In this document: positions 5,139 through 57,861 of the stretch, in pieces | How positions within the stretch are numbered: the first letter of the stretch is position 1 | Layout of the letters: each line of letters begins with the position of its first letter | NCBI GenBank assembly: GCA_902787305.1 | Contig: CADAFS010000002.1 | Location: 31,449 to 95,448 of the forward strand | DNA length: 64,000 nt | Reading direction: 5' to 3' | Origin: an uncultured Pseudomonadota bacterium | Lineage (GTDB): Bacteria; Pseudomonadota; Alphaproteobacteria; Rs-D84 | Notes under the pieces: generated by a model | The model's input: the letters and a program-made list of their open reading frames with translations, nothing else | Database searches by the model: none | Told to the model about the DNA's origin: nothing | Program-made: the position numbers and the translations under genes

Positions 5139-5699
5139 TCAATAATATTCGCCAAGTTCTATGATGCCACGGGCGCGCGCAGACATATTTTGTTGCATAA
5201 ATTTCAAATATTCGTTCGCCGTGCCTGATGCAACACGATGTGCGCGCGGGGTTGTAAAGAAATTCGGATGGTAGTCGCATTCCCAGGCCAATCGTGTTCG
5301 GTCGGCATCCCACAAGCACGCAGAAATATAGTCACGGGGCACAAGATTTTTCAATGAGTGATTTTTAACCGCATATATAATGGATTCGCATGTGCCGAAA
5401 TCCAGTGGAATAATTTCGTTCATAACCTGCTCTGCCAACGGGATTGCGTTGGGGCCATGTATGGTGTCGTCACCGTCATGGGTTCGTGCCATGTCGTGAA
5501 AGGCGCAGGCCAACACAACCCCAGTTGTGTCTTGCCCAAGGGCCAATGCGTAATCAATTCCACGAAAAACCACCGCCGCGGTATGTGTATAAAGCCCGTG
5601 ATAACCCTTCTTTTGTTGAATAGCATATTTTTCAACAACCGGCATTATTTCGGTTAAATACCAATCAAATGTTTTAGAAATAGAAATTCTGTTTGCCAT
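5139..5699 (-). CDS. HD-domain phosphohydrolase-like protein
   Basis: 186 aa. H...HD...D pattern (YHGLYTH ... AFHDMARTHDGDD). Confidence 0.4.
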   Translation of the reverse strand: MANRISISKTFDWYLTEIMPVVEKYAIQQKKGYHGLYTHTAAVVFRGIDYALALGQDTTGVVLACAFHDMARTHDGDDTIHGPNAIPLAEQVMNEIIPLDFGTCESIIYAVKNHSLKNLVPRDYISACLWDADRTRLAWECDYHPNFFTTPRAHRVASGTANEYLKFMQQNMSARARGIIELGEYY

Positions 5700-5927
5700 G
5701 ACTGTTCTTTTTTCTGCGTTCGCCTAATCTATCGTGTTTTTTATCAAATGTAAACAATTTTATTTAATTATTTTGCGTGCGGTCGCAACATGCAAAAATT
5801 AAACCGGCAGAAAGACCTGCCCGCCTACGCCGCTAATTACGAATAATTTTCTCATATTCCTGGTTGCGCTTCGGCGAGGCACTCAATTTTCTTAATCGTG
5901 CGCTTCGCGTGCGATAACGAAAATTGG

Positions 5928-5946
5928 TGGTGCGGGCGAAGGGAAT
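5928..5946. repeat. 19-bp direct repeat of tRNA-Gly(CCC) 3' end (tggtgcgggcgaagggaat), att-like site A
   Basis: Identical to 21197-21215 region of the tRNA-Gly gene at the far end of the island. Confidence 0.7.
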
Positions 5947-6088
5947 GTAATTCCCATTCACTTTGTTCATGGGCCCCTTTCACTGCGCTTCGCTTGTTCC
6001 GAACCCTCTCGTTGCCGTTGGCAACTCTTTCGGGTTCTCTTCCGTCGCCACATGCAAAAATTAAACCGGCAAAATGCCGGTTGAATTT

Positions 6089-6105
6089 TTGGTGCGGGCG
6101 AAGGG
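6089..6105. repeat. 17-bp direct repeat of tRNA-Gly(CCC) 3' end (ttggtgcgggcgaaggg), att-like site B
   Basis: Second copy 160 bp from copy A. Preceded by hairpin ccggcaaaatgccgg and 21-bp repeat catgcaaaaattaaaccggca, which also occurs at 5787-5808. Confidence 0.7.
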
Positions 6106-6300
6106 GACCATATTTTCGCTTTTTTAACCCTTTTTGGACCCTTTTTAGCCGCTTTTTACCTGTTTTTTATCATTTTGCCTGACACTTTGCTTGGCACTTT
6201 TATAAAATACTGTGTTTCCGGTAAAAAGTACACAAAAAAAAATGATATTTACAATTAGTTACAAATTGGTTATAGTTGCATTGAAAGTGAAGAGGAATAT

Positions 6301-7377
6301 ATGAAAAAAACATCCACGTATAATGCAGAAACTTTAAATGGTGTTTTAAGGTTGGCTGAATTGTTTTGTGGCCCTGGTGGTATTGGATTGGGGGCAAAAC
6401 TTGCTAACGTGGACGGTTTAAAGATTAAACATGTCTGGGCTACGGATTACGATAAAGATACATGTGAAACATATAAAAGGAATTTGAACCCAGAAGCAAT
6501 AATTTGTGAAGATATTCGCAAAATGGATTTTGCAAAAATTCATTCAAAATATGGCGAGATAGATTGTTTGACTTTTGGTTTCCCTTGCAATGATTTTAGC
6601 ACGGTTGGCGAACAGAAAGGATTGCACGGGGTTTTTGGTGCTTTGTATCAATATTGTGTAAAAGCATTGGAAGAATTTAAACCGAAATTTTTTATAGCAG
6701 AAAACGTGAGTGGTTTGCGTAATGCTAATGATGGAGAAGCTTTTAATAAGATTTTGGAAGCTTTTAAAAATTGTGGATACAACATATACCCCAATTTATA
6801 TCATTTTGAAGAATATGGTGTTCCACAAAAAAGACATAGAGTCATTATTGTTGGTATACGCAATGATATAAATTTAAAGTTTAAAATACCGTCTACGAAA
6901 CCATATAAAAAAGTGGATAATTCTGTAAGAACTGCTTTGAAAGACATTCCAGAAAAAGCACCAAACAATGAATTAACTGCTCAATCTGCAATGGTTGTAG
7001 AAAGATTGAAATATATAAAGGAAGGTGAAAATGCTTTCACCGCAAAGTTGCCACCACACCTTCAATTAAATGTAAAAGGTGCAAAAATAAGTCAAATTTA
7101 TAAACGGTTAAAAGCAGATGAACCTTCTTATACGATTACTGGTAGTGGTGGCGGTGGCACACATGTATATCATTATAAAGAAAATCGTGCTTTAACAAAC
7201 CGTGAACGTGCAAGGATTCAAACCTTTACGGATGATTTTGTGTTTATAGGGTCGAAAGAAAGTGTTCGTAAACAGATAGGTATGGCGGTTCCACCAAGGG
7301 GTATGAAAATAATATTTGAAGCACTGTTAAATACAATTCTTGGTAATGATTATGAAACAATGGAAGCAAAAGTGTAA
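6301..7377 (+). CDS. DNA (cytosine-5)-methyltransferase (Type II R-M methylase)
   Basis: Motif I FCGPGG, motif IV GFPCNDFS, motif VI ENV, motif VIII QKRHRVIIVG, motif IX RERARIQTFTDDF, motif X GMAVPP. Confidence 0.85.
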   Translation: MKKTSTYNAETLNGVLRLAELFCGPGGIGLGAKLANVDGLKIKHVWATDYDKDTCETYKRNLNPEAIICEDIRKMDFAKIHSKYGEIDCLTFGFPCNDFSTVGEQKGLHGVFGALYQYCVKALEEFKPKFFIAENVSGLRNANDGEAFNKILEAFKNCGYNIYPNLYHFEEYGVPQKRHRVIIVGIRNDINLKFKIPSTKPYKKVDNSVRTALKDIPEKAPNNELTAQSAMVVERLKYIKEGENAFTAKLPPHLQLNVKGAKISQIYKRLKADEPSYTITGSGGGGTHVYHYKENRALTNRERARIQTFTDDFVFIGSKESVRKQIGMAVPPRGMKIIFEALLNTILGNDYETMEAKV

Positions 7378-7380
7378 AAG

Positions 7381-8370
7381 ATGTCCGATATCATATTAAA
7401 AAACGATTTGTTTGAAAAAATATTGTTAGAACCAGCCAGGGAGTGTGATGAGTTGCGGATTGTGTCCGGTTTTTCAACACCTGCTATGGTAGTGCATAAT
7501 TTAACTGAAGTAGAAGAGCAATTTGCAAAACCAGATTTAAAAATACAGTTAATTATAGGTATGACCCCCACAATTTCCGGTATTTCTAAAACGCATCATA
7601 AAAACTTTACTAAACTTGTTGCCAATCGTCCAAACTTTGTGTGTTCGTATATAAAATCAGATGCCAGTCCGATACATACAAAGCTTTATACGTGGCTAAG
7701 AAATGGTGTTCCACAAAAAGCATTTCTTGCTTCTGCAAATTATACGATAAACGCATTTAAAAAAGAACAGGATGAAATAGCAACGGAGTGCGACCCTGTT
7801 CAAGCTTTGGAATATTTTAATTCCAAAGTTCCGCTGTCTTTATATTGCACTTGTGATGAAGCAGAGGAAATGGTTAGAGAAGATGTTTTACGGCAACGTG
7901 TTGCAAGAACGAGAGAAAATTCCGATGAAGAACAACAGGTGCTTGTTGAAAATTCAGGCGTGGAAGGGCAAGACACTGTGTCTTTACCATTATTTGTAGT
8001 TAGAGAAAATAGAATTCATACTCATTCTGGTTTGAATTGGGGGCAAAGAGACCGTAGAAATCCGAATCAGGCCTATATACCAATACCGGCAAAAATAGGT
8101 AGAAGTGGTTTTTTCCCGCCACGTGGACAGCCTTTTGCTGTATTGACTTCAGACGGATTCCCGTTTGTATGTGTTGTAGCACAGGGCGGGGATAAAGCGA
8201 TACATACAACAAATAACAATAGTGAATTTGGTGAATATTTTAGACGCCGGTTGGGTGTCCCATTAGGCGCTCCTATAACATTAGATGATTTGGACCGTTT
8301 TGGGAATAGATATGTTAAATTCACAAAAATAAATGAAGAAGAATATTATATGGAATTCAACCCAAGCTAG
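7381..8370 (+). CDS. Putative Type II restriction endonuclease, PLD-superfamily (BfiI/NgoAVII-like) with C-terminal DNA-binding domain
   Basis: Starts 3 nt after the MTase stop (translationally coupled). N-terminal IHTKLYTWL...(20 aa)...LASANYT resembles the metal-independent PLD nuclease active site (His/Lys ... Asn, spacing H+20 as in BfiI). Call is family-level from motifs only. Confidence 0.45.
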   Translation: MSDIILKNDLFEKILLEPARECDELRIVSGFSTPAMVVHNLTEVEEQFAKPDLKIQLIIGMTPTISGISKTHHKNFTKLVANRPNFVCSYIKSDASPIHTKLYTWLRNGVPQKAFLASANYTINAFKKEQDEIATECDPVQALEYFNSKVPLSLYCTCDEAEEMVREDVLRQRVARTRENSDEEQQVLVENSGVEGQDTVSLPLFVVRENRIHTHSGLNWGQRDRRNPNQAYIPIPAKIGRSGFFPPRGQPFAVLTSDGFPFVCVVAQGGDKAIHTTNNNSEFGEYFRRRLGVPLGAPITLDDLDRFGNRYVKFTKINEEEYYMEFNPS

Positions 8371-8792
8371 AAAAGATTGGTGCTGTGTTCGGCCTGCATG
8401 ACGAACTCAGATATAATAAATAAAATTACCATCCCATACGATTAATAAATCTTGATACGGTTGTTTGTTTGACGGACAGTATTTTTGCATTTCGGTATTA
8501 GATTAATGCATAATATGGTTAGAATTTTTTTCATAAATACTATTTACTTTTTTTTATAAATGTTTTATATTCGGATTGAATCCAAGAGATTGGGTTCGGG
8601 GTCTTTACAAACCCGCTTTATCCGATGCGAAAGCATCGTTATCTGATGGTTTCGGTGCTTTGCATCGTAATCATCCCTGGCTTGATGGTCGGGGTGCCGT
8701 AAGCTATACAACAGGGGTAACCTGAAGGCACGGGGTCAATGATAAAGCGACTGTAAACACTCCCGACCGCCTTTTGTCTGTATGGCGGCCAT

Positions 8793-11700
8793 TTGTTTTT
8801 AGGAAAGGAGATTTATATGCAAAACAAATTGGATTTATCTGTAAAGACAATAACCAAAAACAACATAAAATATAGTTGGGCATTTGTTTTGCTACTAATT
8901 CCTGTTACATCCTATGCTGATTTTAGTTTTAATAATTACCAATACACATTAAATTATTTACGGTCACAACATTTAACAAATGAATTCAGTCATTATACTA
9001 TCAATTTTTCCCCAACACAAAATGATGGGACAATAAATAGTTATGTATATCAAAATGGAACATTAACTCCAGTTAGTTATAATTATACCCTTACACCAAA
9101 TGCTGGGGACCATGGTGGTGGTGTCGTTCTTCATAATGGAGACGATTTAAACGTGTATTGGCACAATGAAACAAATTATAATCTTGTTGCTACTCCTGCA
9201 ACAATAAATACCATCGGAACAATATCTGGGGATTTTATAACTAATTCAGGGTCCGGACAAGCTGGGGGATTAACAAACAATGCTTTTACAATAAATAATT
9301 TATACGGTGATTTTATAGAAAACACTTCAACAACCAATGCTGGAGGCTTGCTTAATCTTGAGAACGGGCTTATTGGTAATATAGTGGGTAATTTTTTAAA
9401 CAATAATGGTATTGGATATGGGGGCGGTATCGACAATGAAGCCACTATTACAAATATAACATCAAATTTTGTTGGGAATATTGTCAATTATCCTGCTAGT
9501 GGTTCTGCCCTGGTTTTTGGGACAGCTATTGGCGGTGGAATTTATAATGCAGGGGCTATAACAGGTATATCGGGAGATTTTATTGATAATAGAGCGTATA
9601 ATTATTTTTCCGATTCCATAACCTCTTACTATTTTTACTCTTTTTCTGGTGGTGGAGCCTTATATAACGGAAAAAATTATTTACAGCCACAAAACAATGT
9701 TGAAACTAATATTATTGAGAACATACAGGGAAATTTTATCGGGAACTCTGCAGTTATTGAAAACATCTATAATCCTACAATAACCGATACTTTATTCTTC
9801 AGTGTTAATGGTGGTGCAATTTTCAATAACTATAATGGTCAAATACAAAACATAAATTCTGATTTTTATAACAATTTTGTGAATATAGATAATACAGGTT
9901 CTCTGTCTGGGATGGATACTATACAATTATGGTCAAGAGGCGGGGCTATTTATAATGAAGGTATAATCAACAATATTACTGGGAGTTTCATTAATAATAG
10001 CGCAACTATAAACAACAATAGTACTTTTAATACAGAAAACGTTCAATTATGGGCTTTTGGAGGCGCTATTTACAATGCTGGACAGCTTGGGTTGCAAGCC
10101 ACATCCAACGACATATTGTTTTCCGGCAACTCCGCAACTTTAGGCGGAGCTATTTATAACACATCCACTTTAACTATGAATATCGCAGAAAACCAACATA
10201 TAATTTTTGACACTGTCAGTGACGATATTTATAATAGCGGAACAATAACAGTATCAGGTGACGGAACTTTGTATTTACAATCTGTATCGGGCAATGGTGT
10301 TTTAAATCTTAATAATCATATTACTCATTTGGCAGACAATGCCGCATTTCAACAATATCTTCTTCAATTAGCGGAAGGGAGCATTTTATATGCTACCCCT
10401 AGTTCTCTTCTCTCTGACACAGGGGTATTAAATGATGGTACTTTATTTTTTTCAGACGGGGTATTATCCACGCACATAACCGGCTCTGGCAATATAATAA
10501 TAAACGGTGACGTGGTTAACGATTCCTACATAGGGAATCAAGTGATTATTAATTATGGTCACTCTTTAACAACTGCCGCTGGGTCGAATAGTTTGCATAA
10601 TGGCATTTTGAATAACGGGACATTATACTTAACAACTGGCTCATTAAGTACATGGACTGATATTACAGGCGATGGAACTATAATAACACTTGGTAATATT
10701 TCTGGTAACGCGGGTCAATTTGGGAACAATATTGTAAATGATTATACATTAACTTTAAACGGTGGAACATTAAATACAAGAATTAGCGGTGATGGAACGC
10801 TTGTTACCACAGGCAATGTAACAATTGATGTAACCGGTGCTTACTATGATACAGGGTATGTTAGTGTAGTAGAAAACAACATACAAAACAATGGGACATT
10901 AACACTTGTCGGTGGAGGTAGATTATGTACAAATATTTCCGGTGATGGTAATGTGGTGATTAATAATTCTTCGGGCTTTGTTGTTTCAGTAGCAGATGAC
11001 AATATTATAAGCGAATCCATAACAATTAATAATGAGGCAAATTTAAATGCATCCGCAAATAGTATTGGCGGAAATGTTATTAATAATGGTCAATTACATC
11101 TTTGGGGTGGGACTTTAACACATAATATTGCAGGAACAGGTTATACAGGCATACATGGTAACACCGAAACATCTGCAAATAATTTGTTAACAAACATTAG
11201 TTTAAGCGGTCTTACTGAATCCGAAGAAATATCACTAACTTTAACAGATGGCACATTACAACGAGTTATAAGCAATGGTAACAATGCAAATAATAATATC
11301 ATTATAGACGGTGATGTTTTATCATCTCCATCAAATCTATTAGTAAATGTTTCTGTAAATGATGGGGCTGTATTAACGTTAACCAATGGTACTTTATCTA
11401 AAAATATAACTGGTAATGGAACGTTATCGACAAGCGATTTAACAACAAGTGCGAATAATCTTGGAATTAACGTTAATAACATAGGCAATTTAACTCTTTC
11501 TGGTGGAACAATAACTCATAATATTACCGGTACAGGGCAAACCACAATCAATGGTGCTGTTACCAATAATGCGCTTATATCTCAAACAATGGTTGTTAAT
11601 TCTGGTAAATCTCTGACAACCGTCGCTGAGGGTATTGGCGGAAATATTTTAAATTCGGGGAATGTTACTTTAACTGGCGGGACCTTAAATAATAATATAT

Positions 11701-13598
11701 CTGGTGGCACAATAACAATAGATGGTAATGTTATTAACGATGGTAATTTGTACGGTTCTCTGGTTATAAATTCAAACAAAAGCCTAACAACTGATGCAGA
11801 TAATATATATTATTCCGGGTTACAAAATAACGGGGAATTGATTTTAACAGGTGGCACAATTTCCGGTGGTATAAATGGTTTATTCTACATATCGGGTAAT
11901 GTAACCAACAATGCTACACAAACTGGACAAATAAACATCTCTAACGGTGGTATGTTTACAACCGGTGGAAATTTATTATCAACAAATAATGCTATTATAA
12001 ATAATGGTACACTTAACATTACCAGTGGCAACCTGCAACAAAATGTTACTGGCGGAAACACCATAATTGCTCAAAACGCAACAACCAGCGCAACCAGTTT
12101 TGGCAATCTGGAATTAAACGGCATTATGAATGTCGGAACCAATACTGTTAATACGGCAAATGCAGATATTAATGGCACTATAAACCTTGGTATATCATCA
12201 TTAAACAAAAATTCCAGTACATATACCGGTGGGCACATTATAGCAGATGACATTGTGTTTGGCGATAATGCCATGCTTAATTTGACCATTACGGACACAA
12301 ACCTGCAAAAGGGTGGTTCCAGTGGTGATATAGAAATAATTACCGCAAATGGTGAATGGACGGGTGATATCGCTACATTTACCAGTAATAATTTGTATGA
12401 TATAGCATATAATACCGAAAATCACACATTTACGTTTACACGTAAAAAATTCGGTGCAGATTTAATAACAGAATTGAACGGGACTGAATTAGATATCAAT
12501 ATCGCCGGGGTTTGGGATGAACTGCAATCATCAGATAATCCAAATATACAAACCATAATAAATGCTATTGACTATAATTCCCAACATAACGCGACCAAAT
12601 ATGCTAAATTAATCCATAATTTGGCGCCACAAAACCATCAGGTTACGGTTGGGGCGGTACGTAACGCCAACACAGTTATAGATAATCATATATTCACTAG
12701 GTTGGCAACACTTAGACGCCCACAAATTAATAGAACCAACGCTAATCTAAGAAAAAGACGCGCAAATCCTTTCTATTATTATGGAAATTATCGTGGCAGA
12801 AACGGTGGTGATACAGAACCGACAACTAACAATGGTATGTGGATAGAAGGACTTTATAATTACGCACAACAAAAAGATGACACAAAGTTTTCTGGCAAAA
12901 CGTTTGGTGTTATGGGCGGTTTTGATTCTAAATTAACGGAACATTTGACCGCTGGTTTAGGGTATGCATTTAACAAAACAAACATTGACGCCGATAATCA
13001 CGATATTGACGCCATGGGGCATACGGGTTTTGTATATGCCGAATATAAACCAACACAATGGTATCTGGACGCTTTGTTGTCATATAACCTGACAAATTAT
13101 CAAAATTCAGCCGCACTTATCGACAATTTGACCGTAAAATCTGATTATAAAACCAACAGTTTGAGTGGCGCCTTGACGTCGGGTTACGATTTTCAAAAAG
13201 GTTTGGATTTATACGGTGGTCTGAATTATATCGGAATTAAACAGGACGCTTACACAGATACCGCCGGTCAATATATCAAAGCCGATGACACACAAATGTT
13301 GACCCTAAAAGCCGGTGGAAGATATAAATTAACAAGTCAAAAAATGAAAAGAGCTAGCACCGTTTTGAAAGCTGCGGTTTTGTACGATGTTATGTCTGAT
13401 GATGGGGTTGCAACGGTAACAGTAGGCAATAATAATTACATTGTTCATGGTAATGGTATTGACCCGTTCGGTGTTCAGGCAGGTATTATGTTTGATTCAT
13501 TTGGTGGCAATACTTATTTATCGCTAGGTTATGACCTTGAATGGCGTAATAATTTCATTAGTCATACAGGTTATATAAAATTGAAATACAATTTCTAA
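8793..13598 (+). CDS. Giant autotransporter / polymorphic-membrane-protein (Pmp)-like adhesin, 1601 aa
   Basis: N-terminal signal peptide (alternative start ATG 8817 MQNKLDL...). Passenger packed with GGA[I/L] tetrapeptides (GGAIYN x>=6) and FxxN repeats (GDFITN, GNFLNN, GDFIDN...), the Pmp hallmark. Many (N)ITG(G)/GTL beta-helix-like repeats. C-terminal ~300 aa beta-barrel translocator ending ...LKYNF (terminal Phe). Strongly AT-rich Asn/Thr/Gly codon usage. Confidence 0.75.
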   Translation: MFLGKEIYMQNKLDLSVKTITKNNIKYSWAFVLLLIPVTSYADFSFNNYQYTLNYLRSQHLTNEFSHYTINFSPTQNDGTINSYVYQNGTLTPVSYNYTLTPNAGDHGGGVVLHNGDDLNVYWHNETNYNLVATPATINTIGTISGDFITNSGSGQAGGLTNNAFTINNLYGDFIENTSTTNAGGLLNLENGLIGNIVGNFLNNNGIGYGGGIDNEATITNITSNFVGNIVNYPASGSALVFGTAIGGGIYNAGAITGISGDFIDNRAYNYFSDSITSYYFYSFSGGGALYNGKNYLQPQNNVETNIIENIQGNFIGNSAVIENIYNPTITDTLFFSVNGGAIFNNYNGQIQNINSDFYNNFVNIDNTGSLSGMDTIQLWSRGGAIYNEGIINNITGSFINNSATINNNSTFNTENVQLWAFGGAIYNAGQLGLQATSNDILFSGNSATLGGAIYNTSTLTMNIAENQHIIFDTVSDDIYNSGTITVSGDGTLYLQSVSGNGVLNLNNHITHLADNAAFQQYLLQLAEGSILYATPSSLLSDTGVLNDGTLFFSDGVLSTHITGSGNIIINGDVVNDSYIGNQVIINYGHSLTTAAGSNSLHNGILNNGTLYLTTGSLSTWTDITGDGTIITLGNISGNAGQFGNNIVNDYTLTLNGGTLNTRISGDGTLVTTGNVTIDVTGAYYDTGYVSVVENNIQNNGTLTLVGGGRLCTNISGDGNVVINNSSGFVVSVADDNIISESITINNEANLNASANSIGGNVINNGQLHLWGGTLTHNIAGTGYTGIHGNTETSANNLLTNISLSGLTESEEISLTLTDGTLQRVISNGNNANNNIIIDGDVLSSPSNLLVNVSVNDGAVLTLTNGTLSKNITGNGTLSTSDLTTSANNLGINVNNIGNLTLSGGTITHNITGTGQTTINGAVTNNALISQTMVVNSGKSLTTVAEGIGGNILNSGNVTLTGGTLNNNISGGTITIDGNVINDGNLYGSLVINSNKSLTTDADNIYYSGLQNNGELILTGGTISGGINGLFYISGNVTNNATQTGQINISNGGMFTTGGNLLSTNNAIINNGTLNITSGNLQQNVTGGNTIIAQNATTSATSFGNLELNGIMNVGTNTVNTANADINGTINLGISSLNKNSSTYTGGHIIADDIVFGDNAMLNLTITDTNLQKGGSSGDIEIITANGEWTGDIATFTSNNLYDIAYNTENHTFTFTRKKFGADLITELNGTELDINIAGVWDELQSSDNPNIQTIINAIDYNSQHNATKYAKLIHNLAPQNHQVTVGAVRNANTVIDNHIFTRLATLRRPQINRTNANLRKRRANPFYYYGNYRGRNGGDTEPTTNNGMWIEGLYNYAQQKDDTKFSGKTFGVMGGFDSKLTEHLTAGLGYAFNKTNIDADNHDIDAMGHTGFVYAEYKPTQWYLDALLSYNLTNYQNSAALIDNLTVKSDYKTNSLSGALTSGYDFQKGLDLYGGLNYIGIKQDAYTDTAGQYIKADDTQMLTLKAGGRYKLTSQKMKRASTVLKAAVLYDVMSDDGVATVTVGNNNYIVHGNGIDPFGVQAGIMFDSFGGNTYLSLGYDLEWRNNFISHTGYIKLKYNF

Positions 13599-14007
13599 AA
13601 TCGGAATTAATAGTAAACACGAGCTTTTTGAATGCCCTAAAACAACGCTTAGAAGGAAGATAATGGGTCGTTAATCGATTGTTCTTTCTTATGAGTATGG
13701 TGTGAATTTGGAGCGATATGGAATGTTTTATGGGACTTCCCAACATTGGTGCAGATAAGTATCATCATTTTTGCATAAAAAGCATAAACTATAAAATTTA
13801 TATAGTTTATTATTAACTATACCGATTAAACCGTAAATACGACCTTATTTTGCTCCGAAGGGTTAAAAATGCTCAAAAAAAGCCATTTTTTCAAGAAAAT
13901 CTGGCGTTTTTTGTAAAATTCTGGCGTACATTTAGTTTTCAACAGTTTATAATAATATCAGATTTAATAAAAGCGTTAAATCATAACTAAAAACAAAAGG
14001 ATATAAA

Positions 14008-14301
14008 ATGAAACAACAGTCTAATCTTTTGAAACAATTCCAGGTATGGATGGAACAAAAGGGTTATAAAAAAACAACACAATCGAATTTGCCAAGCACT
14101 ATTGCAACATATACGGCGTCTTTCCTTCAAATTTGCGAGTGGGAATCTAAAACACCGGAACAAGTTGCAGAATCTATTTCTGACATAGTGCTTGATTACA
14201 CGATAAAAACTCATTCTGCTAGAGGAAGAATGCGCAGTAGGTCCATCCGGGCAAGTGCGGTCGCCTTCAAAAACTTTTTAATCGAATCACAGGTTGCGTG
14301 A
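14008..14301 (+). CDS. Hypothetical small protein (weak resemblance to phage-integrase N-terminal SAM-like/core-binding domain)
   Basis: 97 aa. RBS aaggat 7 nt upstream. Overlaps next ORF by 4 nt (ATGA). Confidence 0.35.
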   Translation: MKQQSNLLKQFQVWMEQKGYKKTTQSNLPSTIATYTASFLQICEWESKTPEQVAESISDIVLDYTIKTHSARGRMRSRSIRASAVAFKNFLIESQVA

Positions 14302-14627
14302 TGAATAAGATTGCCGAATTAAATGATAACCTTAGAAAACATATGTGGTCCCCTGGTCGTAATAAAATCGTTTTGACCAGGGGTGTATGTTCTTTGCCGT
14401 TGATTGAACAAATGTTGTTATTGAAAAAGGTCAGAAATTTTAATGACTTTAATAAAGCAAACGATGTTTATAAACACCATGACTTTGGAAAAATTGAACA
14501 CAATGGGACAAACTATTTTTTCAAGATAGATTATTATGACCCATCGATGGAATATGGTTCAGAAAACCCAGCAAACGAAAATATAACAATCCGGGTTTTA
14601 ACGATAATGCGTGCAGACGAATATTAA
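14298..14627 (+). CDS. DUF3768-like protein (family typical of plasmids/ICEs)
   Basis: 109 aa. Motifs HHDFGKIEH, FFKIDYYD, TIRVLTIMRADEY recalled as the DUF3768 signature. Family call from memory, unverified. Confidence 0.4.
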   Translation: MMNKIAELNDNLRKHMWSPGRNKIVLTRGVCSLPLIEQMLLLKKVRNFNDFNKANDVYKHHDFGKIEHNGTNYFFKIDYYDPSMEYGSENPANENITIRVLTIMRADEY

Positions 14628-14640
14628 AAAAGGACTTGAT

Positions 14641-14784
14641 ATGGCGAATTGCACTTATTTTAAACTTGAAGTTAACGGTATGATATTGCCGGAAATATAT
14701 TTCAACTATGACCAAGCAAAAACCGCATTACAGAATATAGAAAAAACTAATGTTGCTGTAATCGGTAGAGTTATTATGTTTTAA
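14641..14784 (+). CDS. Small ORF (47 aa) MANCTYFKLEVNGMILPEIYF..., hypothetical
   Basis: Immediately downstream of the DUF3768-like ORF. Followed by a clear terminator hairpin. Confidence 0.25.
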   Translation: MANCTYFKLEVNGMILPEIYFNYDQAKTALQNIEKTNVAVIGRVIMF

Positions 14785-14805
14785 CCGTTGATATCAAAAC
14801 AATAA

Positions 14806-14842
14806 AACCTGTATACGCTGGAAAGTATACAGGTTGTTTTTT
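14806..14842 (+). terminator. Rho-independent terminator (aacctgtatac-gctggaaa-gtatacaggtt + T6)
   Basis: 11-bp perfect stem, T-run. Ends the 14008-14784 small-gene operon. Confidence 0.7.
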
Positions 14843-14878
14843 ACATTTGTTCCATATTTGAGTCGTGGCTGCCCCAAT

Positions 14879-15517
14879 CTAGAAATGCTTAATACTTAGT
14901 ATCCGATGACTCAAAGGAGCAACCACAAAGGGTTTGTGTGATGATTTGGAATGTTTTGTATCGTCTGGAAACATCTCGGTTGATAAAAATACTCGATTAT
15001 CGTCAAAATAGGCGTCTTTATTGGCTTTGATTTCCTTTGTTGCATAAAAATACGCTTTGCATTCGGTTCTGTTCATTGTTTGAATATCAACCACATCCGG
15101 AGAATAACAAAAATGTTTTATAGTTTTATCTATCGCCGCGGTTATTTTATAATTGTGGTATCGGTTATTCTGTAAAAACATATGAAAATGCCACTTGTTG
15201 GATGAATTCTGTTCACCGAAACCGATAAATAATAACTGTTTACGAAACCAGTGTCTTGGACTTAATTGCTTTTGAAAATACTTCATAACCCGTCGTAAAT
15301 AACTTCGGGATATTTCCATACTTTTACTACGCTGATTTGTTGGAAATTGGATTGAAATAAAGTGCGTCGGAGCAAATTCACACAACCATTTGCAAATTTC
15401 CCGTCTTAAAATCAATGTTTGTTTTGCATTTTTACGAATTATACAATCAATTCTGTATACATCCACCATATCATTATTTGTAGTTAACATTTTTACCACC
15501 ATTGTTGTTGCAACCAC
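14879..15517 (-). CDS. Hypothetical protein with HUH-endonuclease-like motifs (possible rolling-circle Rep/relaxase-like initiator)
   Basis: Contains HFISIQF (motif-1-like), WHFHMFL (HUH-like H-F-H), and AYFYATKEIK (YxxK motif-3-like) in the canonical order. Start uncertain (several in-frame Met). Not verifiable without search. Confidence 0.3.
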   Translation of the reverse strand: MVATTMVVKMLTTNNDMVDVYRIDCIIRKNAKQTLILRREICKWLCEFAPTHFISIQFPTNQRSKSMEISRSYLRRVMKYFQKQLSPRHWFRKQLLFIGFGEQNSSNKWHFHMFLQNNRYHNYKITAAIDKTIKHFCYSPDVVDIQTMNRTECKAYFYATKEIKANKDAYFDDNRVFLSTEMFPDDTKHSKSSHKPFVVAPLSHRILSIKHF

Positions 15518-15889
15518 AGATGCAAATCAAATCACGATAGGTTGTGGTGGTGTGGTGGTAATGATTCTTTCTGCATCTATGGTTATTAACATAAATTAGA
15601 ACATCTGTTTTATTGTTTTTGCGTTGTGGTTGTATTTTCTTGAAAAAGAGTAAAAAAATTAAACAACACGATTGTTTTTTCGGCTGTTAATTTTTTTAAC
15701 CAACATATATCAACCGCATTGCGTCTATGTTTATCGTCGAATACCACATCGAAAGTCCACAAGCGATACAATATACACATTTTTATAGAACAGTTTTTTG
15801 TGGTGGTTGCATGGACGGAATTATTTTTTTGATAAAAATCCCGGTGTTTTAAACCGGGATTGATGGTTGCACCATATGGCGCTTTATTA

Positions 15890-16078
15890 TTATTTTGGTT
15901 TAGCGATACGCATAAAATCGCAAGTTGATATCAACATACACCTGTTTAATCGTGCAAAATCCGGACCTTCCGTTTTCAAATTTTTATAAATTTGTTTAAC
16001 GGAAAATCTTTTGTCTGGGAATAATTCTTGTAATCTTTCCTTGGCAAATTTTGCTTCAATTTTTAACCTGTTATTCAT
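15890..16078 (-). CDS. Small protein (62 aa), last gene of 3-gene MTase operon; possible DNA-binding/regulatory protein
   Basis: Start overlaps stop of upstream MTase by 8 nt. Basic, helix-rich sequence. Confidence 0.3.
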   Translation of the reverse strand: MNNRLKIEAKFAKERLQELFPDKRFSVKQIYKNLKTEGPDFARLNRCMLISTCDFMRIAKPK

Positions 16079-17294
16079 GATTTTCTCCTTCGGTTTTTGT
16101 ATTAGGGTTAAATTCTGCTTTTACAAATTCGGCAACAACGGCACAGCAGTGTGCACTAACCCAGCATTCCCCCAAAACAGTGCGGAGCAACTTGGTTTTC
16201 TGTCGTGCCCAATATGGAATTTCGATATCATCGGGTAATCCGATTGCACGAAAAATTTCATGTATTGTGAATGTACGGCAATCTGTAAATTGTTCGTTTC
16301 CGTCCTTATCCAAAATTGGTTTACCGTTATCATCAACAATTAATCGACCTGGATGAATCATATGATATGCGGATAGTTCACCACTATTCGTCAAAATCGA
16401 ATGCATTGGTTCATTCCACCTCGCGCGGCTGAAAGCACCAGCGTGTTTAGCACCACTTACTTTTTTAGATAATGTTAGTGGGGAAACAACCCGTTCACCA
16501 GTTGGTGTTATTCGTATTTGGTCTGCTTGCCAAGGTGCGACATACCCAGGTTCATCGTACCAATCTGGTCCACGTTGCCCGAATTCCAGTGTTGGTAAAT
16601 CGTCAATTGCATCTTCCAATGTTAATGGGATTTCTGTGATTGGTTCTGGTAATTTTATTGGTTTAACCTTTGACGCCATAATAATTGTTCGTGGCCGATT
16701 AATTGCTACCCCGAAATGTTTTGCATTTTGAACGGCTTTACAAACATATTGAAAACCAAGATTTCTTAATTCTTTTTCTATTTGGTCGCCAAGCAGAAGT
16801 TCATATTTCTTCGTTTTAAAAGTTAACATATCTTCCGCATTTTCTATGGCGCAGAATTCATATGATGGACAGCGTTTTAAATGTTCCATAACCGCTTCGA
16901 ATAGATATTGTTCATCACTATCTTCATCCTTCCTTGTGTTTGCCCGAGTTATTTGCTGACAGCATGGACTTGCCAGAAGTATTTGCGGTTGTTCTTTATT
17001 TGCAATTTCAGCCAATTTATCTTGCACTTTCGGGTTGGTTATATCACCAATTACCATCGTTGAATTTTTAAAAAGTGCATGATTTAGTTTAGCGCGGTCT
17101 GGTACCAACTCGTTCGTCAAAACAACATCTACCCCTATGTTTTGAAGGTAATACTGGTTTATTCCAGCACACGCAAATAGATTGGTCGCCTTCAAACGAT
17201 GGGGCGTGTCTATTTTGATTTGTTGGGGTTGAACGTGCGACTTGATTTTGTCGCATGTTGTTTTTATTAATAAATCACTGTTATTTCGTGCCAT
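16071..17294 (-). CDS. Second DNA (cytosine-5)-methyltransferase
   Basis: Motif I LFACAGI, motif IV ASPCCQQ (PC), motif VIII QNAKHFGVAINRPRTIIMA, motif IX RTFTIHEIFRAIGLPDD, C-terminal GECWV. Variable TRD between VIII and IX. 14-nt overlap with upstream ORF. Confidence 0.75.
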   Translation of the reverse strand: MARNNSDLLIKTTCDKIKSHVQPQQIKIDTPHRLKATNLFACAGINQYYLQNIGVDVVLTNELVPDRAKLNHALFKNSTMVIGDITNPKVQDKLAEIANKEQPQILLASPCCQQITRANTRKDEDSDEQYLFEAVMEHLKRCPSYEFCAIENAEDMLTFKTKKYELLLGDQIEKELRNLGFQYVCKAVQNAKHFGVAINRPRTIIMASKVKPIKLPEPITEIPLTLEDAIDDLPTLEFGQRGPDWYDEPGYVAPWQADQIRITPTGERVVSPLTLSKKVSGAKHAGAFSRARWNEPMHSILTNSGELSAYHMIHPGRLIVDDNGKPILDKDGNEQFTDCRTFTIHEIFRAIGLPDDIEIPYWARQKTKLLRTVLGECWVSAHCCAVVAEFVKAEFNPNTKTEGENHE

Positions 17295-18414
17295 TGTAAT
17301 CTCCTTTGGCTTCGCTGATTAAATAATTTTGTTTTAGGTATTTGAAACTTTCGTCGTGAATTTCCAAGACCGGAAAAGTCGGATACATTTGTTGGATGAT
17401 TTCCGCATAATATAATGGGTGTTTATCCGTTTTTGTGATTTCTCGGTCAAATACAACGGAATCCATTTTTAGGTTCTGCGGCTTCGGGGCGTCTCCCTTA
17501 CACACTATCACCATTGTTCGATGTTGACGGGTTGTAAAAGCCCCGTTGTGTGATTTACCGGTATCCACAACCGCAAATTCTTTTACCGTAAATCGTAAAT
17601 TTTTCAGAATATCCAATGATTTTTGAATTTGTGATTCATCCAGCCAGAAAAATCCAACGGCATCTTCCGCAATATGATTTCGCATAATTTCAACATTGAT
17701 TTTATACACCAAATCACCATAAATTACCGGAAATTTTGCATTTTCTGGTAAATCAAACATAGGGGCATCACCGGCTTCAAGAACCGTGAATGTTTTGTTT
17801 TCCGATTTTTCATCCGTATGAATTTTTTGATTAAGTTGGTACAAAGTCGGCAAATCTTCAACATCCCAATCGCCACTTTTTAACTTTTTTAACGACTCTT
17901 GGGTGGCGCGTTCGACCATGTCAAAGGTTATATCTTTTCTTATTGTCCATTTTTTTCGCGACAATTTATATTCGTCCCATGCCATTTTATAACTTGGAAA
18001 TCGCCCAGATTTGATATCCCGTTTAATATGCTCTACCTTTTGGACTTCTCGATAAAGCAACCACGAATTCAAATAAATCGCTGTTTCGCATACACCAGTA
18101 TGATTTTCTAATTCATCCGGCGAATTTGCATGTTTGAGTGCACCCTTGGCATCGGATAATAACTTTTCGGCATCTTTTTCATATTCCGCCAATTCTGCTT
18201 CCGTTAAAACTCGAACATCTGGTAATAATGTACAACCAGACACCATTACCGCCGTATTAATCGGATTTGATTCGGTCGTTTCAACGGGTTGAGTTAATTC
18301 TTGCTGTTCTGTTTGTTCGGATAAATCTGCCACCATATCGATTTCTAGACCAATCCTAGACGCATTTAATTCGGCCGCGTTTAAACCATTATTTAAAGAA
18401 TTCATAACTAGCAT
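17281..18414 (-). CDS. Hypothetical 377-aa protein, first gene of MTase operon (candidate cognate restriction endonuclease or other defence partner)
   Basis: No recognisable motifs by eye. Translationally coupled to the C5-MTase. Acidic N-terminus. Probable true start at second ATG (18405) with AAGGA RBS. Confidence 0.4.
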   Translation of the reverse strand: MLVMNSLNNGLNAAELNASRIGLEIDMVADLSEQTEQQELTQPVETTESNPINTAVMVSGCTLLPDVRVLTEAELAEYEKDAEKLLSDAKGALKHANSPDELENHTGVCETAIYLNSWLLYREVQKVEHIKRDIKSGRFPSYKMAWDEYKLSRKKWTIRKDITFDMVERATQESLKKLKSGDWDVEDLPTLYQLNQKIHTDEKSENKTFTVLEAGDAPMFDLPENAKFPVIYGDLVYKINVEIMRNHIAEDAVGFFWLDESQIQKSLDILKNLRFTVKEFAVVDTGKSHNGAFTTRQHRTMVIVCKGDAPKPQNLKMDSVVFDREITKTDKHPLYYAEIIQQMYPTFPVLEIHDESFKYLKQNYLISEAKGDYNGTK

Positions 18415-18799
18415 TCCTTAATTTTTGACAATAAAAGCACCCTTTGCGAAATCGCATTATCGGTTCTGCTCCGGGAAACTTTAGGTTAAAATTTGGATGA
18501 AAAACTTTTCGGTTTACATCCGCTTAAACTTGGTCTAGAATGTTCATTGCATATGAGTCGTTCTAGACCATTAGTTCGATTCTTTAATTTGGGGTTAACG
18601 GTTTCATATCGTTGCTCCATTTTTTTATTTGTTAATTTTTTTTACACAACAATGATTAAATAAACCGCAGAAATTCGCCAGAAATTTATTTTCATTTTTT
18701 GCAAATAAATTTTGGAAAAAATTTTGAAAAAAACAGTTTGTATCAAATTAAAAATTAAAATCCTTGATTTTGGGGCTTTTTTAATTACGATATGTAGCA

Positions 18800-19303
18800 A
18801 TGCTACACATTTGGAAAAACATGGACGGAAAACTGAATATTTTTTTGGCTAATTTATACAAATACCTGAACGAATCGGTGGATTTTTTGGATGTATGGTT
18901 AAAACAAAATCCGATAAAAAAACGAATCATAACGCCAATTGAAATGAAAATATTATATGGATTAAAATACGAAAATTTGAAAACACAGCGGGATATTGAA
19001 AACCATTATAATATGTATCGTTCAACAATTATGAAAACATTAAACAAATTAAAATCAGACGGATTATTAACAATCGAAACAAAATCATTTAAAAATCGCA
19101 CCATAACGCTTACCCAAACAGGTAATGAAACCATTGAATCTATTTTTACACAGATTGCCACTTTTTATCAAAATATGGTGAAAAACGAAATGAAGAATTT
19201 AGATGATGATGGCGTTATGGATGAATGTATAACAACTACACAGAAGGCTTATTTAAATCTCGGCCGAATAATAAAATATTTACCACACAGAAACAAAAAA
19301 TGA
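18800..19303 (+). CDS. Putative winged-helix (MarR-like) transcriptional regulator
   Basis: 167 aa. Central segment QRDIENHYNMYRSTIMKTLNKLKSDGLLTIE resembles the MarR/SlyA HTH-wing. Divergent from the MTase operon. Confidence 0.35.
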   Translation: MLHIWKNMDGKLNIFLANLYKYLNESVDFLDVWLKQNPIKKRIITPIEMKILYGLKYENLKTQRDIENHYNMYRSTIMKTLNKLKSDGLLTIETKSFKNRTITLTQTGNETIESIFTQIATFYQNMVKNEMKNLDDDGVMDECITTTQKAYLNLGRIIKYLPHRNKK

Positions 19304-19379
19304 AATACACTATATGGCGTTTAACCACTGAATAAGCCATCAAACAAATTTCAAGCACACGCGTAAAAAGGCCTTCGTG

Positions 19380-19500
19380 TATTTTTGATTATTTCAATGT
19401 TGGTTTTGGTGTGGGTGGTGGCTAGTCGGGGCTGGCGGCTGGCAGGTGGGTATCCTGGGATGCCGGGTGGGATATGGTAGCCCCCGGGTAGGTGGGTATA
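19380..19500. repeat. G-rich tract with GGTGGG/GGTGGGTAT iterations immediately 3' of integrase stop
   Basis: tggttttggtgtgggtggtggctagtcggggctggcggctggcaggtgggtatcctgggatgccgggtgggatatggtag...ggtaggtgggtataacc. Confidence 0.5.
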
Positions 19501-19514
19501 ACCAGCGCAATCAA

Positions 19515-21095
19515 CTATTTTTTTGACATAACTTTTTTCCAGTAATCAAATTCCGGTTGCAGAAAATCGTATCGCAGTTTATCCGCTTGTTCTTTGATTT
19601 TTGCCAGCGTATGCTTGGAATAGTGTTGTTCCATAATTGTTTGGCCTTTCCAGCCCATAATATTGTTGATATATGATTGTGGAACTAAAAAATCCTGCAA
19701 TTGTAAACTTGCATTATTGCGGAAAGAATGGAAATCCAATTTACCCTTGTATGGTTTAGATAAATTCAAACTACGAATAAACGGTAAAATGCCTTCGGAT
19801 ACATATTTATTATTATAATTACCTTTGCTGTTAACCGCTTGGGTAAATACAGGGTCACTATCTTCGGCTTTTAATCTGCTTTTTTTCCTTTGAGCCCAAT
19901 CAATAAATCCCAAATCCAATAATTGTGTTGGAAGTGGCAACACTCGTATTGTTGCACCAGTTTTTAATTGTTTGGTTTTATTGTCCTTATCTTTATGGAA
20001 ATAGATACAATAACAACCATCTACATCAATAATATCTTTATATTGAATTGTTACTGCTGCATTTGTTCTGGCACCAGCAAACATTCCCATCAAAATAGCC
20101 CAAAAATCGTCAGGGTTATCTTTGAAATGTTTGTGTTTTGGGTTGAATATTTCTTTCAAATCTTTTTCTGTGTATGGCATATGCGGATTTTGGGATTCGC
20201 CTTTTTTATAAACAGGATAGCGGTTGTTAAAATTTTTGTACAATCCGGGATATTCTCTGTCTGCATAATTGTATAATGCCTTTAAATAACCGACTTTCTT
20301 GCCTTTTGTTGCATCTGTCGCCCACTTAGGGTTTGTTTTTATTTCGTTTATTATCGCATCAATTTTTGCTTCATTATTAAATTCAGCGTAATCGGAATCA
20401 ATGGTCAATCCAATTTTTTTGGCCATATGTTTAAAAAACGATTCTTTCTTGCGTTTTTCTGCATCCCCATTATTTTCATGCTGAATCCAAGCGTCTCTCA
20501 ATTCCCTTATCGTGTGTTTTTCCGGTGGTGTTCCAGAACCGGAACCTGAATTTATGTAATCCATTTGTAATATTTTTTGTTGATTTTGCATGATTACTTC
20601 TTGATTGGTTAAAATTTGCCCCATCATTTCTTCTAAGTGTTGTATTTGGTCAATCGTATCTGGGTCAGTAATGCTCAATTTTAATTTTTGTAATCTTGAA
20701 TATATTCCAAGTAAAGCCTTTATTTTTATAGGGTCGTTTTGAATCGATATGCGTTTAACTTTGCACATCATCATTTGACCGCCGCAATCAATTTCCTTAT
20801 CGTATTCATCAAAAACCATATTTTTTGATATCGATTCAGCGGCAAGAATTAATGTTTTTGCTTCAAAGTTTTTTGAATATGAATTGTCTTTCATTTGTTT
20901 CGCCTTTTCCAACGCCTCATAATAATTTTTCGTATGTAATGATTTTATAAAATATCGGCGTTTACCATTTTGACGCGGTAATTCAACCATATAATAAAAC
21001 ACATCACCCCTAAGATAAAGATTGTCATTTGCTTGACAGTTTGCTTTACACTTCTTGAACATAGTTATTTTCTCCTTGTTTTTCAAGTGCGCCAA
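19515..21095 (-). CDS. int: Tyrosine-type site-specific integrase (phage integrase family), tRNA-adjacent
   Basis: 526 aa. C-terminal catalytic region with ARTNAAV (Arg), KTGATIRVLPL, HSFRNNASLQL (H-x-x-R), MGWKGQTIMEQHYSKHT (catalytic Tyr). Lies 100 bp from the tRNA-Gly 3' end, co-oriented. Confidence 0.8.
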   Translation of the reverse strand: MAHLKNKEKITMFKKCKANCQANDNLYLRGDVFYYMVELPRQNGKRRYFIKSLHTKNYYEALEKAKQMKDNSYSKNFEAKTLILAAESISKNMVFDEYDKEIDCGGQMMMCKVKRISIQNDPIKIKALLGIYSRLQKLKLSITDPDTIDQIQHLEEMMGQILTNQEVIMQNQQKILQMDYINSGSGSGTPPEKHTIRELRDAWIQHENNGDAEKRKKESFFKHMAKKIGLTIDSDYAEFNNEAKIDAIINEIKTNPKWATDATKGKKVGYLKALYNYADREYPGLYKNFNNRYPVYKKGESQNPHMPYTEKDLKEIFNPKHKHFKDNPDDFWAILMGMFAGARTNAAVTIQYKDIIDVDGCYCIYFHKDKDNKTKQLKTGATIRVLPLPTQLLDLGFIDWAQRKKSRLKAEDSDPVFTQAVNSKGNYNNKYVSEGILPFIRSLNLSKPYKGKLDFHSFRNNASLQLQDFLVPQSYINNIMGWKGQTIMEQHYSKHTLAKIKEQADKLRYDFLQPEFDYWKKVMSKK

Positions 21096-21196
21096 AGCAA
21101 AAAATGTTGGGAATCCAAAGATTTATTTGCATTGATATGTTTTTTATATCAAACAAAAAATCCGGTCAAAGTGCCGGATTTGTGATAAAACTATCT

Positions 21197-21270
21197 TGGT
21201 GCGGGCGAAGGGAATCGAACCCTCGTCTAAAGCTTGGGAAGCTTTCGTGCTGCCATTATACCACGCCCGC
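21197..21270 (-). tRNA. tRNA-Gly (anticodon CCC)
   Basis: Reverse complement GCGGGCGTGGTATAATGGCAGCACGAAAGCTTCCCAAGCTTTAGACGAGGGTTCGATTCCCTTCGCCCGCACCA. 7-bp acceptor, anticodon loop TTCCCAA, T-arm GGGTTCGATTCCC, encoded CCA. Near-identical in architecture to enterobacterial glyU. Confidence 0.85.
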
Positions 21271-54401: not shown

Positions 54402-54492
54402 TGGCGGAGATGATGGGATTCGAACCCATGATACGGTTGCCCGTATACCACATTTCCAATGTGGCGCACTAGACCAACTATGCGACATCTCC
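54402..54492 (-). tRNA. tRNA-Ser (anticodon GGA)
   Basis: Reverse complement GGAGATGTCGCATAGTTGGTCTAGTGCGCCACATTGGAAATGTGGTATACGGGCAACCGTATCATGGGTTCGAATCCCATCATCTCCGCCA. Acceptor 7 bp, anticodon loop TTGGAAA, long variable arm (class II), T-arm GGGTTCGAATCCC, CCA encoded. Confidence 0.8.
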
Positions 54493-56248: not shown

Positions 56249-56249
56249 T
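56231..56249. repeat. Dispersed repeat copy, inverted (actaaccacttacattaat) overlapping mtaB-like 3' end
   Basis: Reverse complement of the TTAGTGTAAGTGGTTAGT core. Confidence 0.55.
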
Positions 56250-57513: not shown

Positions 57514-57861
57514 TGTGTCCTCTCCCATTTTGTTTGTTGTTATGAAAAAACGTCGCCAAATGGGACGTGTCGGGGTGTTCAAAAACCATACAAGACAATG
57601 ATCCCAAGGCCTTTTGCCGAAGCATTATAACCATTGGCACCCCAACAATAGGGGTATATCAAAATGACGGCACAGAATATCGGAAATTCTATGGATTACG
57701 ACATAATGTGCCGGTCTTGTATTGGGTTTTTGAAGACCCGAAATTCAGAATCCCTTCTGACTTCGCTCTTATACTATCACGAATCGGGTTTGCGGGGCAA
57801 GTGGTTTTTTATAACGCATAAAAATACCGCGATTTCCGCGGTGTTGATAACATTTTTGTCT

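Follow-up and report, generated by a model that had tools for sequence, protein, structure and literature searches.

Polymorphic membrane proteins (Pmps) of Chlamydia are type Va autotransporters in which alternating FxxN and GGA(I/L/V) motifs build a beta-helical passenger; they are allelically polymorphic, combine PF02415 repeats with a PF07548 middle domain and a PF03797 barrel, and are encoded by a chromosomal paralogue family. In Enterobacteria, the adhesin autotransporters Ag43 (flu), AIDA-I, TibA, MisL (on SPI-3) and ShdA are borne on islands or plasmids. Fusobacterium proteins of the Fap2/RadD type are very long beta-solenoid rods on a type Va barrel. P4-like satellites and small islands carry an integrase, an AlpA/HTH gene and a primase, followed by a variable cargo hotspot. 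Here we analyzed a stretch of 64,000 nucleotides from an uncultured Pseudomonadota bacterium (GenBank assembly GCA_902787305.1, contig CADAFS010000002.1, positions 31,449 to 95,448 of the forward strand; the whole stretch is called the window below), in which a gene at 8817..13598 (+; 1593 aa plus stop) encodes a classical (type Va) autotransporter. We consider it highly probable that the locus as a whole is explained by a type Va autotransporter on a mobile tRNA-Gly island, with mosaic alleles, an attenuated leader and a likely role as an adhesin. The protein itself is of an ordinary, well-known class, and the moderate interest of the locus lies in its mosaicism across mobile backbones and in its covarying leader RNA.

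The protein was assigned to type Va because it has a barrel profile, translocator fold matches, a solenoid passenger, a signal-peptide-like N-terminus and a C-terminal Phe. When the last 349 amino acids were scanned alone, PF03797 (Autotransporter; cut-off 26 bits) matched with 89.6 bits (E 3.7e-25) over profile positions 1-254 of 255. Pfam and NCBIfam scans of the whole protein gave no barrel match, and this miss is a filtering artefact of the low-complexity sequence. An earlier prediction, made from the DNA sequence alone (the original prediction), had named a profile search for the barrel as one way to refute it; run naively, that search therefore gives a false negative, since the whole-protein scan drops PF03797. 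Precomputed domain lists were empty for the window protein and several close homologues, from the same cause. For annotation this means that a whole-protein Pfam scan can overlook an autotransporter barrel behind a low-complexity passenger. The translocator beta-barrel (aa ~1338-1593; 12828..13595, +) was modelled with a predicted local distance difference test score (pLDDT) of about 90 and ends in KLKYNF (C-terminus ...GYIKLKYNF), with the terminal F invariant across 40 homologues; the C-terminal barrel ending in Phe was thus correctly foreseen.

With 40 homologues as input, AlphaFold modelled aa 1062-1593 at a mean pLDDT of 86; the model contains, in order, the end of the solenoid, a helical bundle (aa 1213-1298), a disordered basic linker and the barrel. 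The passenger-barrel junction (12453..12827, +) comprises this predicted bundle and the low-confidence linker (aa ~1299-1337). The top PDB matches of the C-terminal model in Foldseek were all type Va translocators, namely EstA (3kvn, E 2.5e-25), NalP (1uyn, TM 0.79 on the target), EspP, Hbp, BrkA and AIDA-I; phmmer against PDB sequences returned nothing meaningful. Like the enterobacterial adhesins, with the AIDA-I transport unit among the fold matches, the window protein has a beta-helical passenger and a 12-stranded barrel, and such proteins share with it the setting in tRNA-linked islands with integrases. Unlike them, it shows no similarity to their passenger sequences, uses other repeat types and belongs to one gene family that occurs on at least four small integrative elements with block mosaicism.

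The N-terminal third of the passenger carries the Pmp-type repeats. Within aa 1-520, [GSN][DNS]F[ILVY]xN occurs 8 times and GGx[ILV][YFDLT]N 7 times, each against 0.1 expected from shuffled sequences, and strict GGA[ILV] occurs 5 times against 0.1, which bears out the alternating FxxN/GGA repeats reported before. Counted as GxFIxN (8 copies) and GGxIxN (7-10 copies), the motifs fall within aa ~130-450, where 0.1-0.6 would be expected, and exceed expectation 50- to 80-fold. The F motifs (aa 140-435) alternate with the GG motifs (aa 150-443) in a region of ~9 GxFIxN / GGxIYN units (aa ~131-450; 9207..10166, +). The periodicity of ~40 residues that had been proposed holds for the later F repeats, which are 37-52 aa apart, but not for the first four, which are spaced by ~25 aa. 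The F..N and GGAI columns were invariant or nearly so in 37 homologues, TIGR01376 scored 18.5 bits (cut-off 15), and the more distant homologues found with the window protein as query carry PF02415 and PF03797. The window repeats align rung for rung with those of one homologue, P0043, in which PF02415 scores 72.7 bits and PF03797 128.9 bits. These properties of the sequence point to a divergent Pmp-repeat autotransporter, which would work like a Pmp without being a clean member of the curated family.

The rest of the predicted beta-solenoid passenger (aa ~451-1212; 10167..12452, +) consists of ~11 repeats of the NxGxLxLxGGxL type and a C-terminal cap. The full form of the repeat, NxGxLxLxGGxLxxxIxGxG, recurs ~55-60 aa apart in aa 480-1160 (identified partly by inspection) and is different from the Pmp type. 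An AlphaFold model of aa 1-1161 had a mean pLDDT of 83.4; aa ~130-1160 were modelled entirely as short beta strands, mostly with pLDDT 85-97. The composition (N 14.6%, G 12.3%, T 11.3%) confirmed the Asn/Thr/Gly bias noted earlier. No other Pfam domain, catalytic or otherwise, was found in any third of the protein. The Fusobacterium proteins share the very long beta-solenoid rod on a type Va barrel, and the extracellular domain of Fap2 (9qe7) was the second-best PDB match of the passenger, although not significant (E 0.22). Fap2 is, in contrast, much larger and has a defined lectin/TIGIT-binding tip, and no such tip was recognisable in the window protein.

The six-frame open reading frame (ORF) listing gives 8793..13598 (+), 1601 aa if read from TTG. 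This ORF is real, but its start is likely misplaced. The ATG at 8817 lies seven bases after the Shine-Dalgarno-like AGGAAAGGAG and gives a product of 1593 aa with the N-terminus MQNKLDLS, whereas the TTG at 8793 falls within the U-run of an upstream terminator-like hairpin; for these two reasons we place the start at 8817, which, as read from the sequence, is almost certainly the true one. An exactly identical 1593-aa protein is recorded from four contigs (NCBI, ENA and Logan). The signal-peptide-like N-terminus (aa 1-34; 8817..8918, +) has a Lys-rich n-region and the hydrophobic stretch WAFVLLLIPV, followed by SYA/DF. The putative Sec signal peptide, MQNKLDLSVKTITKNNIKYSWAFVLLLIPVTSYA before DF, was identified by eye only, and the A/DFSF junction is kept in homologues. 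Some alleles (L008:10001-10375, L009:9659-10030; P0003 and P0010; alignment A1, columns 1-130) start ~90-125 codons before the signal-peptide-like segment. Their upstream extension is conserved, looks non-secretory (MNAKTVCEKILESLQIANFPHIK...) and is absent from the window allele; either the pre-sequence is unusual or the start has been mis-called.

The gene lies in an island of 15.1 kb (6088-21212) that ends at the 3' end of tRNA-Gly(CCC), the integration target (21197..21270, -). The 3' end of the tRNA, 21197-21212, forms the proximal island boundary, and the distal boundary is an identical, att-like 16-nt direct repeat of it at 6088..6103 (-). A tyrosine integrase of 525 aa (19515..21095, -; PF00589 27.3 bits against a cut-off of 27.1, phrog_1 86 bits) lies ~100 nt from the tRNA 3' end. 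The original prediction had placed the gene in a tRNA-linked island next to an integrase; the island and its att-like repeats agree with this, but the integrase is ~6 kb from the gene, in the same island and not adjacent to it. The GC content is 0.33-0.39 over 6-21 kb versus mostly 0.42-0.50 outside the island. Because the gene sits inside a tRNA-linked integrase island, its horizontal carriage is well founded.

The window comes from a metagenome assembly, and contigs from other samples break at the island ends, so that the island signature could be suspected to be spurious, a product of composition or assembly, with the gene ancestral to the chromosome. Against this, the same 15.8-kb arrangement was assembled in two independent metagenomes with 99.9-100% identity, exact 16-nt tRNA-end repeats bracket the island with the integrase adjacent, and close alleles occupy different islands at different chromosomal sites. 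We regard the artefact as so improbable as to be nearly negligible. A search for a clean empty attB site found none, only an imperfect variant: contig L125 (k141_1695872 of ERZ27280436), from the same metagenome as one of the island copies, matches the right flank at 99.98% over 12.1 kb and has no island. After the tRNA it continues with 80 nt and then a gdh gene only 80% identical to that of the window. In the tRNA-Gly at L125:12030-12260 the 3' acceptor strand differs (CACTCGCACCA) and would mispair with the 5' strand, and the 186-aa gene found at 5139-5699 of the window is missing from L125.

The closest homologues (41-86% identity) come from gut metagenomes, and two of the three genome matches are metagenome-assembled genomes of Candidatus Enterousia (order Rs-D84). 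Going by these relatives, the bacterium that carries the island is an uncultured alphaproteobacterium of the gut. Genomes of Ca. Enterousia and Rs-D84 are under 1 Mb and lack the TCA cycle and respiration (PMC12306168). The close alleles are all in mobile contexts, on at least four unrelated integrative elements including the window island, which upheld the predicted horizontal transfer. One element has a P4-like integrase with Toprim and AAA_25 (L006, L015-17), another a P4-like integrase with HTH_17 and Prim-Pol/PriCT_2 (L012-14), and a third a serine recombinase, a ParB-methylase, a terminase, an S8 peptidase and a tyrosine integrase (L008). Several alleles directly follow the primase/helicase module in islands with a P4-type integrase, as cargo does in P4-like hotspots, and copies of the leader described below precede defence genes. 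The window island, unlike such hotspots, has restriction-modification genes, a Rep-like gene and the 525-aa integrase. A 228-aa ORF without Pfam match is conserved 3' of the autotransporter in both P4-type islands (L012, L015, L016) and absent from the window island; it may be a partner or accessory gene. A scan of IMG/VR with the protein found no relative and thus no sign of carriage on catalogued phages.

When the alleles were compared pairwise in 200-nt bins, stretches of 96-100% identity alternated with stretches of 55-70%. Identity to the window reaches 98-100% in the L008 allele at 8941-9140 and 10741-11340 and falls to 56-73% in the interval that separates these two blocks. The L006 allele matches at 96-99% across 9141-10740 and departs from the window thereafter, and at 12341-12740 the L012 allele has 99% identity. 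All three agree with the window at 93-100% over the 3' end of the gene. These patterns strongly support that passenger segments are shuffled by recombination between alleles on different elements, with the ends conserved. The prediction had allowed for slipped-strand or recombinational variation, and it is the recombinational part that stood. Phase or length variation through slipped-strand mispairing in the repeats would fit a highly repetitive protein whose alleles span 1157 to 1900 aa and whose promoter spacer contains a T8 run (8550-8557). Tandem Repeats Finder, however, gave one trivial 20-nt array in 5 kb and no arrays in the gene, which leaves slippage without a substrate. The direct DNA repeats in the gene are at most 26 nt long and imperfect, the same 1593-aa product came from all four contigs, and the length differences between alleles are whole-block replacements rather than changes in unit number. 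Slipped-strand variation is therefore very unlikely.

Upstream of the gene we found a structured 5' leader RNA of ~220 nt (8578..8800, +). It comprises a hairpin H1 (8578-8597), a long-range helix formed by two hypervariable self-complementary segments (8602-8622 with 8741-8758), a core resembling sRNA-Xcc1 (8687-8776) and a terminator-like hairpin (8765-8771 with 8784-8790) followed by a U-run (8792-8800). A sigma-70-like promoter candidate lies directly 5' of it at 8543..8571 (+; TTTACT, 17 nt, TATATT; 9/12 matches, a consensus match only), and a TATA(A/C/T)T box is present at the same aligned position in most leader copies. Alleles with far more divergent coding DNA are preceded by a sequence 92-96% identical to the segment 8551-8774. 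Scanning metagenomes with a pattern and then with nhmmer recovered ~45 further loci with the full element, among them L008:9743-10013, L009:9404-9672, L012:9741-10013, L015:9746-10014 and L006:8954-9219; the alignment used below holds 33 distinct copies. A scan of IMG/VR with the leader pattern found nothing.

The window leader folds to -87.5 kcal/mol (z = -5.35), and in the RNAalifold structure on the alignment 97% of cells are paired. Eighteen pairs changed on both sides, compared with 9.7 in shuffles, none of 500 of which reached this number, and with 3-7 when partners were slid. In 32 of the 33 copies (25 variants), two hypervariable segments on the 5' side have their perfect complement in two hypervariable segments on the 3' side, and the cognate duplexes average -16.2 kcal/mol versus -4.9 for non-cognate ones. 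A hairpin and U-run end the element in 29/33 copies. The 8-nt sequence GGUCGGGG can pair either with the upstream CCCUGRCU, as in the RNAalifold and minimum free energy (MFE) folds, or with the downstream CUCCCGACC, as in the outer stem of Xcc1, and this downstream partner overlaps the 5' arm of the terminator. The alternative pairings suggest attenuation, in which the switch itself is what we infer from the sequence.

In published accounts sRNA-Xcc1 (RF02221) occurs on integrons, islands and phages and directly 5' of symE and of an ORF6N-domain gene. Rfam at gathering thresholds reported two tRNAs only in the window, and at permissive thresholds sRNA-Xcc1 was the only match to the leader, scoring 27.2 bits in the window and at best 43.8 bits (E 7e-5) in related copies, against a gathering threshold of 53. 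The model is matched over its full length (positions 1-87) by the 3' half of the leader, including the outer stem and the first inner hairpin. The leader differs in that all scores are under the 53-bit threshold, in an extra 5' domain of ~110 nt, in a hypervariable long-range helix that replaces the second hairpin of the model, and in the terminator and cargo ORF that follow directly. A second, weak match to the leader core at 57539-57653 (-; nhmmer 24.9 bits, E 2e-7; sRNA-Xcc1 21 bits, E 0.45) lies at the mechanical 5' end of a 445-aa ORF (56245-57582, -), a few kb from tRNA-Ser (54402-54492), and may be another cargo site.

The leader always has the same orientation and stands immediately 5' of an ORF. 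The genes that follow it encode Pmp-like autotransporters, an OMP beta-barrel, an acyltransferase, GmrSD, a ResIII helicase, DUF1796, lipoprotein-like ORFs and small membrane proteins; because they are so diverse, we take it as a general leader of cargo genes that is not specific to the autotransporter. We tentatively propose, short of calling it probable, that it represents a new class of mobile-element regulatory RNA gating acquired surface and defence genes, with the layout of a riboswitch-like or factor-dependent attenuator. With the same reserve, it might mark where the cargo slot begins in several unrelated integrative elements that gut Alphaproteobacteria carry, with a core that is a distant, extended relative of sRNA-Xcc1. 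If so, this would suggest that the sRNA-Xcc1-family 'sRNAs' on integrons and phages are leaders of this kind too, and the published setting of sRNA-Xcc1 agrees with the proposal. We know of no description of a conserved structured RNA at the cargo-slot entry of P4-like islands, nor of a structured leader in this form.

The upstream element could instead be an independent gene of the mobile element for a trans-acting RNA like sRNA-Xcc1, with the autotransporter relying on its own expression signals. It has its own promoter-like box and, in most copies, a terminator, the genes downstream of it are mutually unrelated, and the title of Chen et al. 2011 calls sRNA-Xcc1 a trans-acting sRNA. The distance from the terminator U-run to the start codon in the window, however, is ~17 nt and is filled by the Shine-Dalgarno sequence alone, which leaves no space for a separate promoter; the constant orientation and the ORF immediately downstream also speak against independence. 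No second target of the hypervariable segments was found in the 64-kb window, which also weakened a trans-acting immunity-type reading of the kind known from P1 C4 and P4 CI. We hold an independent sRNA gene to be unlikely.

In the model that we favour, an attenuated leader in front of an island-borne autotransporter, transcription would probably start from the promoter at 8543-8571 and would have to pass the structured leader and the intrinsic terminator 17 nt before the start codon. With a leader that ends in a terminator at this point, attenuation is the probable means by which expression is controlled. The Sec signal peptide would direct the protein to the periplasm, the C-terminal barrel (~255 aa) would enter the outer membrane via BAM, and the passenger (~1,180 residues) would be threaded outward and fold as a long beta-solenoid rod, presumably kept on the cell surface. 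Its membrane-distal third would consist of the FxxN/GGAI rungs of Pmp type and the remainder of the second Gly/Asn/Thr-rich repeat. Homologous recombination among alleles would yield mosaic passengers between the conserved leader upstream and the conserved barrel downstream.

Since no enzymatic domain was found, the most likely role of the passenger, judged from its sequence, is adhesion, with host mucus, host epithelium, partner cells and sister cells as conceivable targets. The host-cell adhesin that had been predicted is a putative one, suggested by the beta-solenoid architecture of type Va. The same architecture could serve a role other than host adhesion: self-association or aggregation, as in Ag43-type proteins, attachment to partner microbes on which an organism with a reduced genome relies, or a surface change that favours the mobile element, such as masking of receptors against phage or competing elements. 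Relatives occur in the reduced-genome Ca. Enterousia, for which we infer a dependence on other cells; on related elements the same leader precedes the defence genes GmrSD and ResIII as well as genes for other outer-membrane proteins, so that the cargo slot is not specific to host interaction; and the gene adjoins restriction-modification genes. The sequence does not separate such roles from host adhesion, though, and no receptor-mimic or exclusion domain was found. A role away from the host is possible, if on the doubtful side.

Several points weigh against the overall account of a Pmp-like, island-borne adhesin under leader control. The likeness to chlamydial Pmps is partial. In the Pfam check proposed for the two families, PF03797 was recovered on the C-terminal fragment, but PF02415 (Chlam_PMP) reached only 16.9-18.5 bits, under its gathering threshold of 20.6, and the Pmp middle domain PF07548 (ChlamPMP_M) was not found in Pfam scans up to E 10. 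The Pmp-type motifs are all within aa 130-450, in the first third of the passenger, and not spread over the whole of it; the other two thirds are made of the non-Pmp repeat. The Pmp-like passenger of the original prediction thus holds for the N-terminal third, where the TIGR01376 match passes. Unlike the chlamydial proteins, moreover, this one belongs to an alphaproteobacterial host, is present as a single copy on a mobile island (tblastn found no second copy in the 64-kb window) and owes its polymorphism to recombination between mobile-element alleles. The first ~130 residues were modelled poorly, and the PDB matches of the passenger in Foldseek were not significant (best E 0.018), although the top ones are beta-helical adhesins or passengers: EtpA, Fap2, SepA, EspC, IcsA and Ag43. 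Because a disordered ~35 aa with pLDDT below 50 separate the helices (aa 1213-1298) from the first barrel strand, the pore-spanning helix is not clearly identified. The left flank of L125 is only 80% identical and its tRNA 3' end is different, so that it is an island-free variant and not a clean empty site. The term 'host-cell adhesin' is read from the architecture alone, with no binding domain found, and the leader terminator could mean that the gene is usually silent.

Ca. Enterousia and Rs-D84 inhabit the gut and are uncultured. A surface rod encoded by 4.8 kb would be a large investment for a genome of less than 1 Mb, and it is an obvious candidate for a contact organ. Exchange on small islands together with re-assortment of blocks makes the gene behave as a fast-evolving, horizontally traded surface determinant, relevant to strain-level differences in colonisation and to the reading of strain variation in metagenomes. 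The leader, if functional as proposed, would provide a handle on how mobile elements control their cargo.

The region around the distal island boundary contains a further copy of the tRNA-Gly 3' end. This outer, older copy of 19 nt, TGGTGCGGGCGAAGGGAAT, lies at 5926..5944 (-) and was probably left by an earlier integration at the same site, as part of a remnant of 162 nt. The two fragments are 162 nt apart and are accompanied by a 31-nt repeat at 5782-5812 and 6044-6074, of which the latter copy contains a hairpin resembling a tRNA terminator. The repeats in 5782-6105 look like scars of repeated integration and excision at tRNA-Gly.

Between this boundary and the leader lies a type II restriction-modification pair (6301..8370, +), composed of a C5-cytosine methyltransferase (6301-7377; PF00145 260 bits) and an NgoFVII-family endonuclease (7381-8370; PF09565 99 bits, PF20731 105 bits). 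The gene block 14008..19303 of the island holds a 97-aa ORF, a DUF3768 gene (14298-14627), a weakly matching Rep-like gene (14879-15517, -), a second, solitary C5-methyltransferase (16071-17294, -), a 377-aa ORF (17281-18414, -) and a winged-helix regulator-like gene (18800-19303). Defence and anti-restriction cargo thus sits beside the surface-protein gene on this island.

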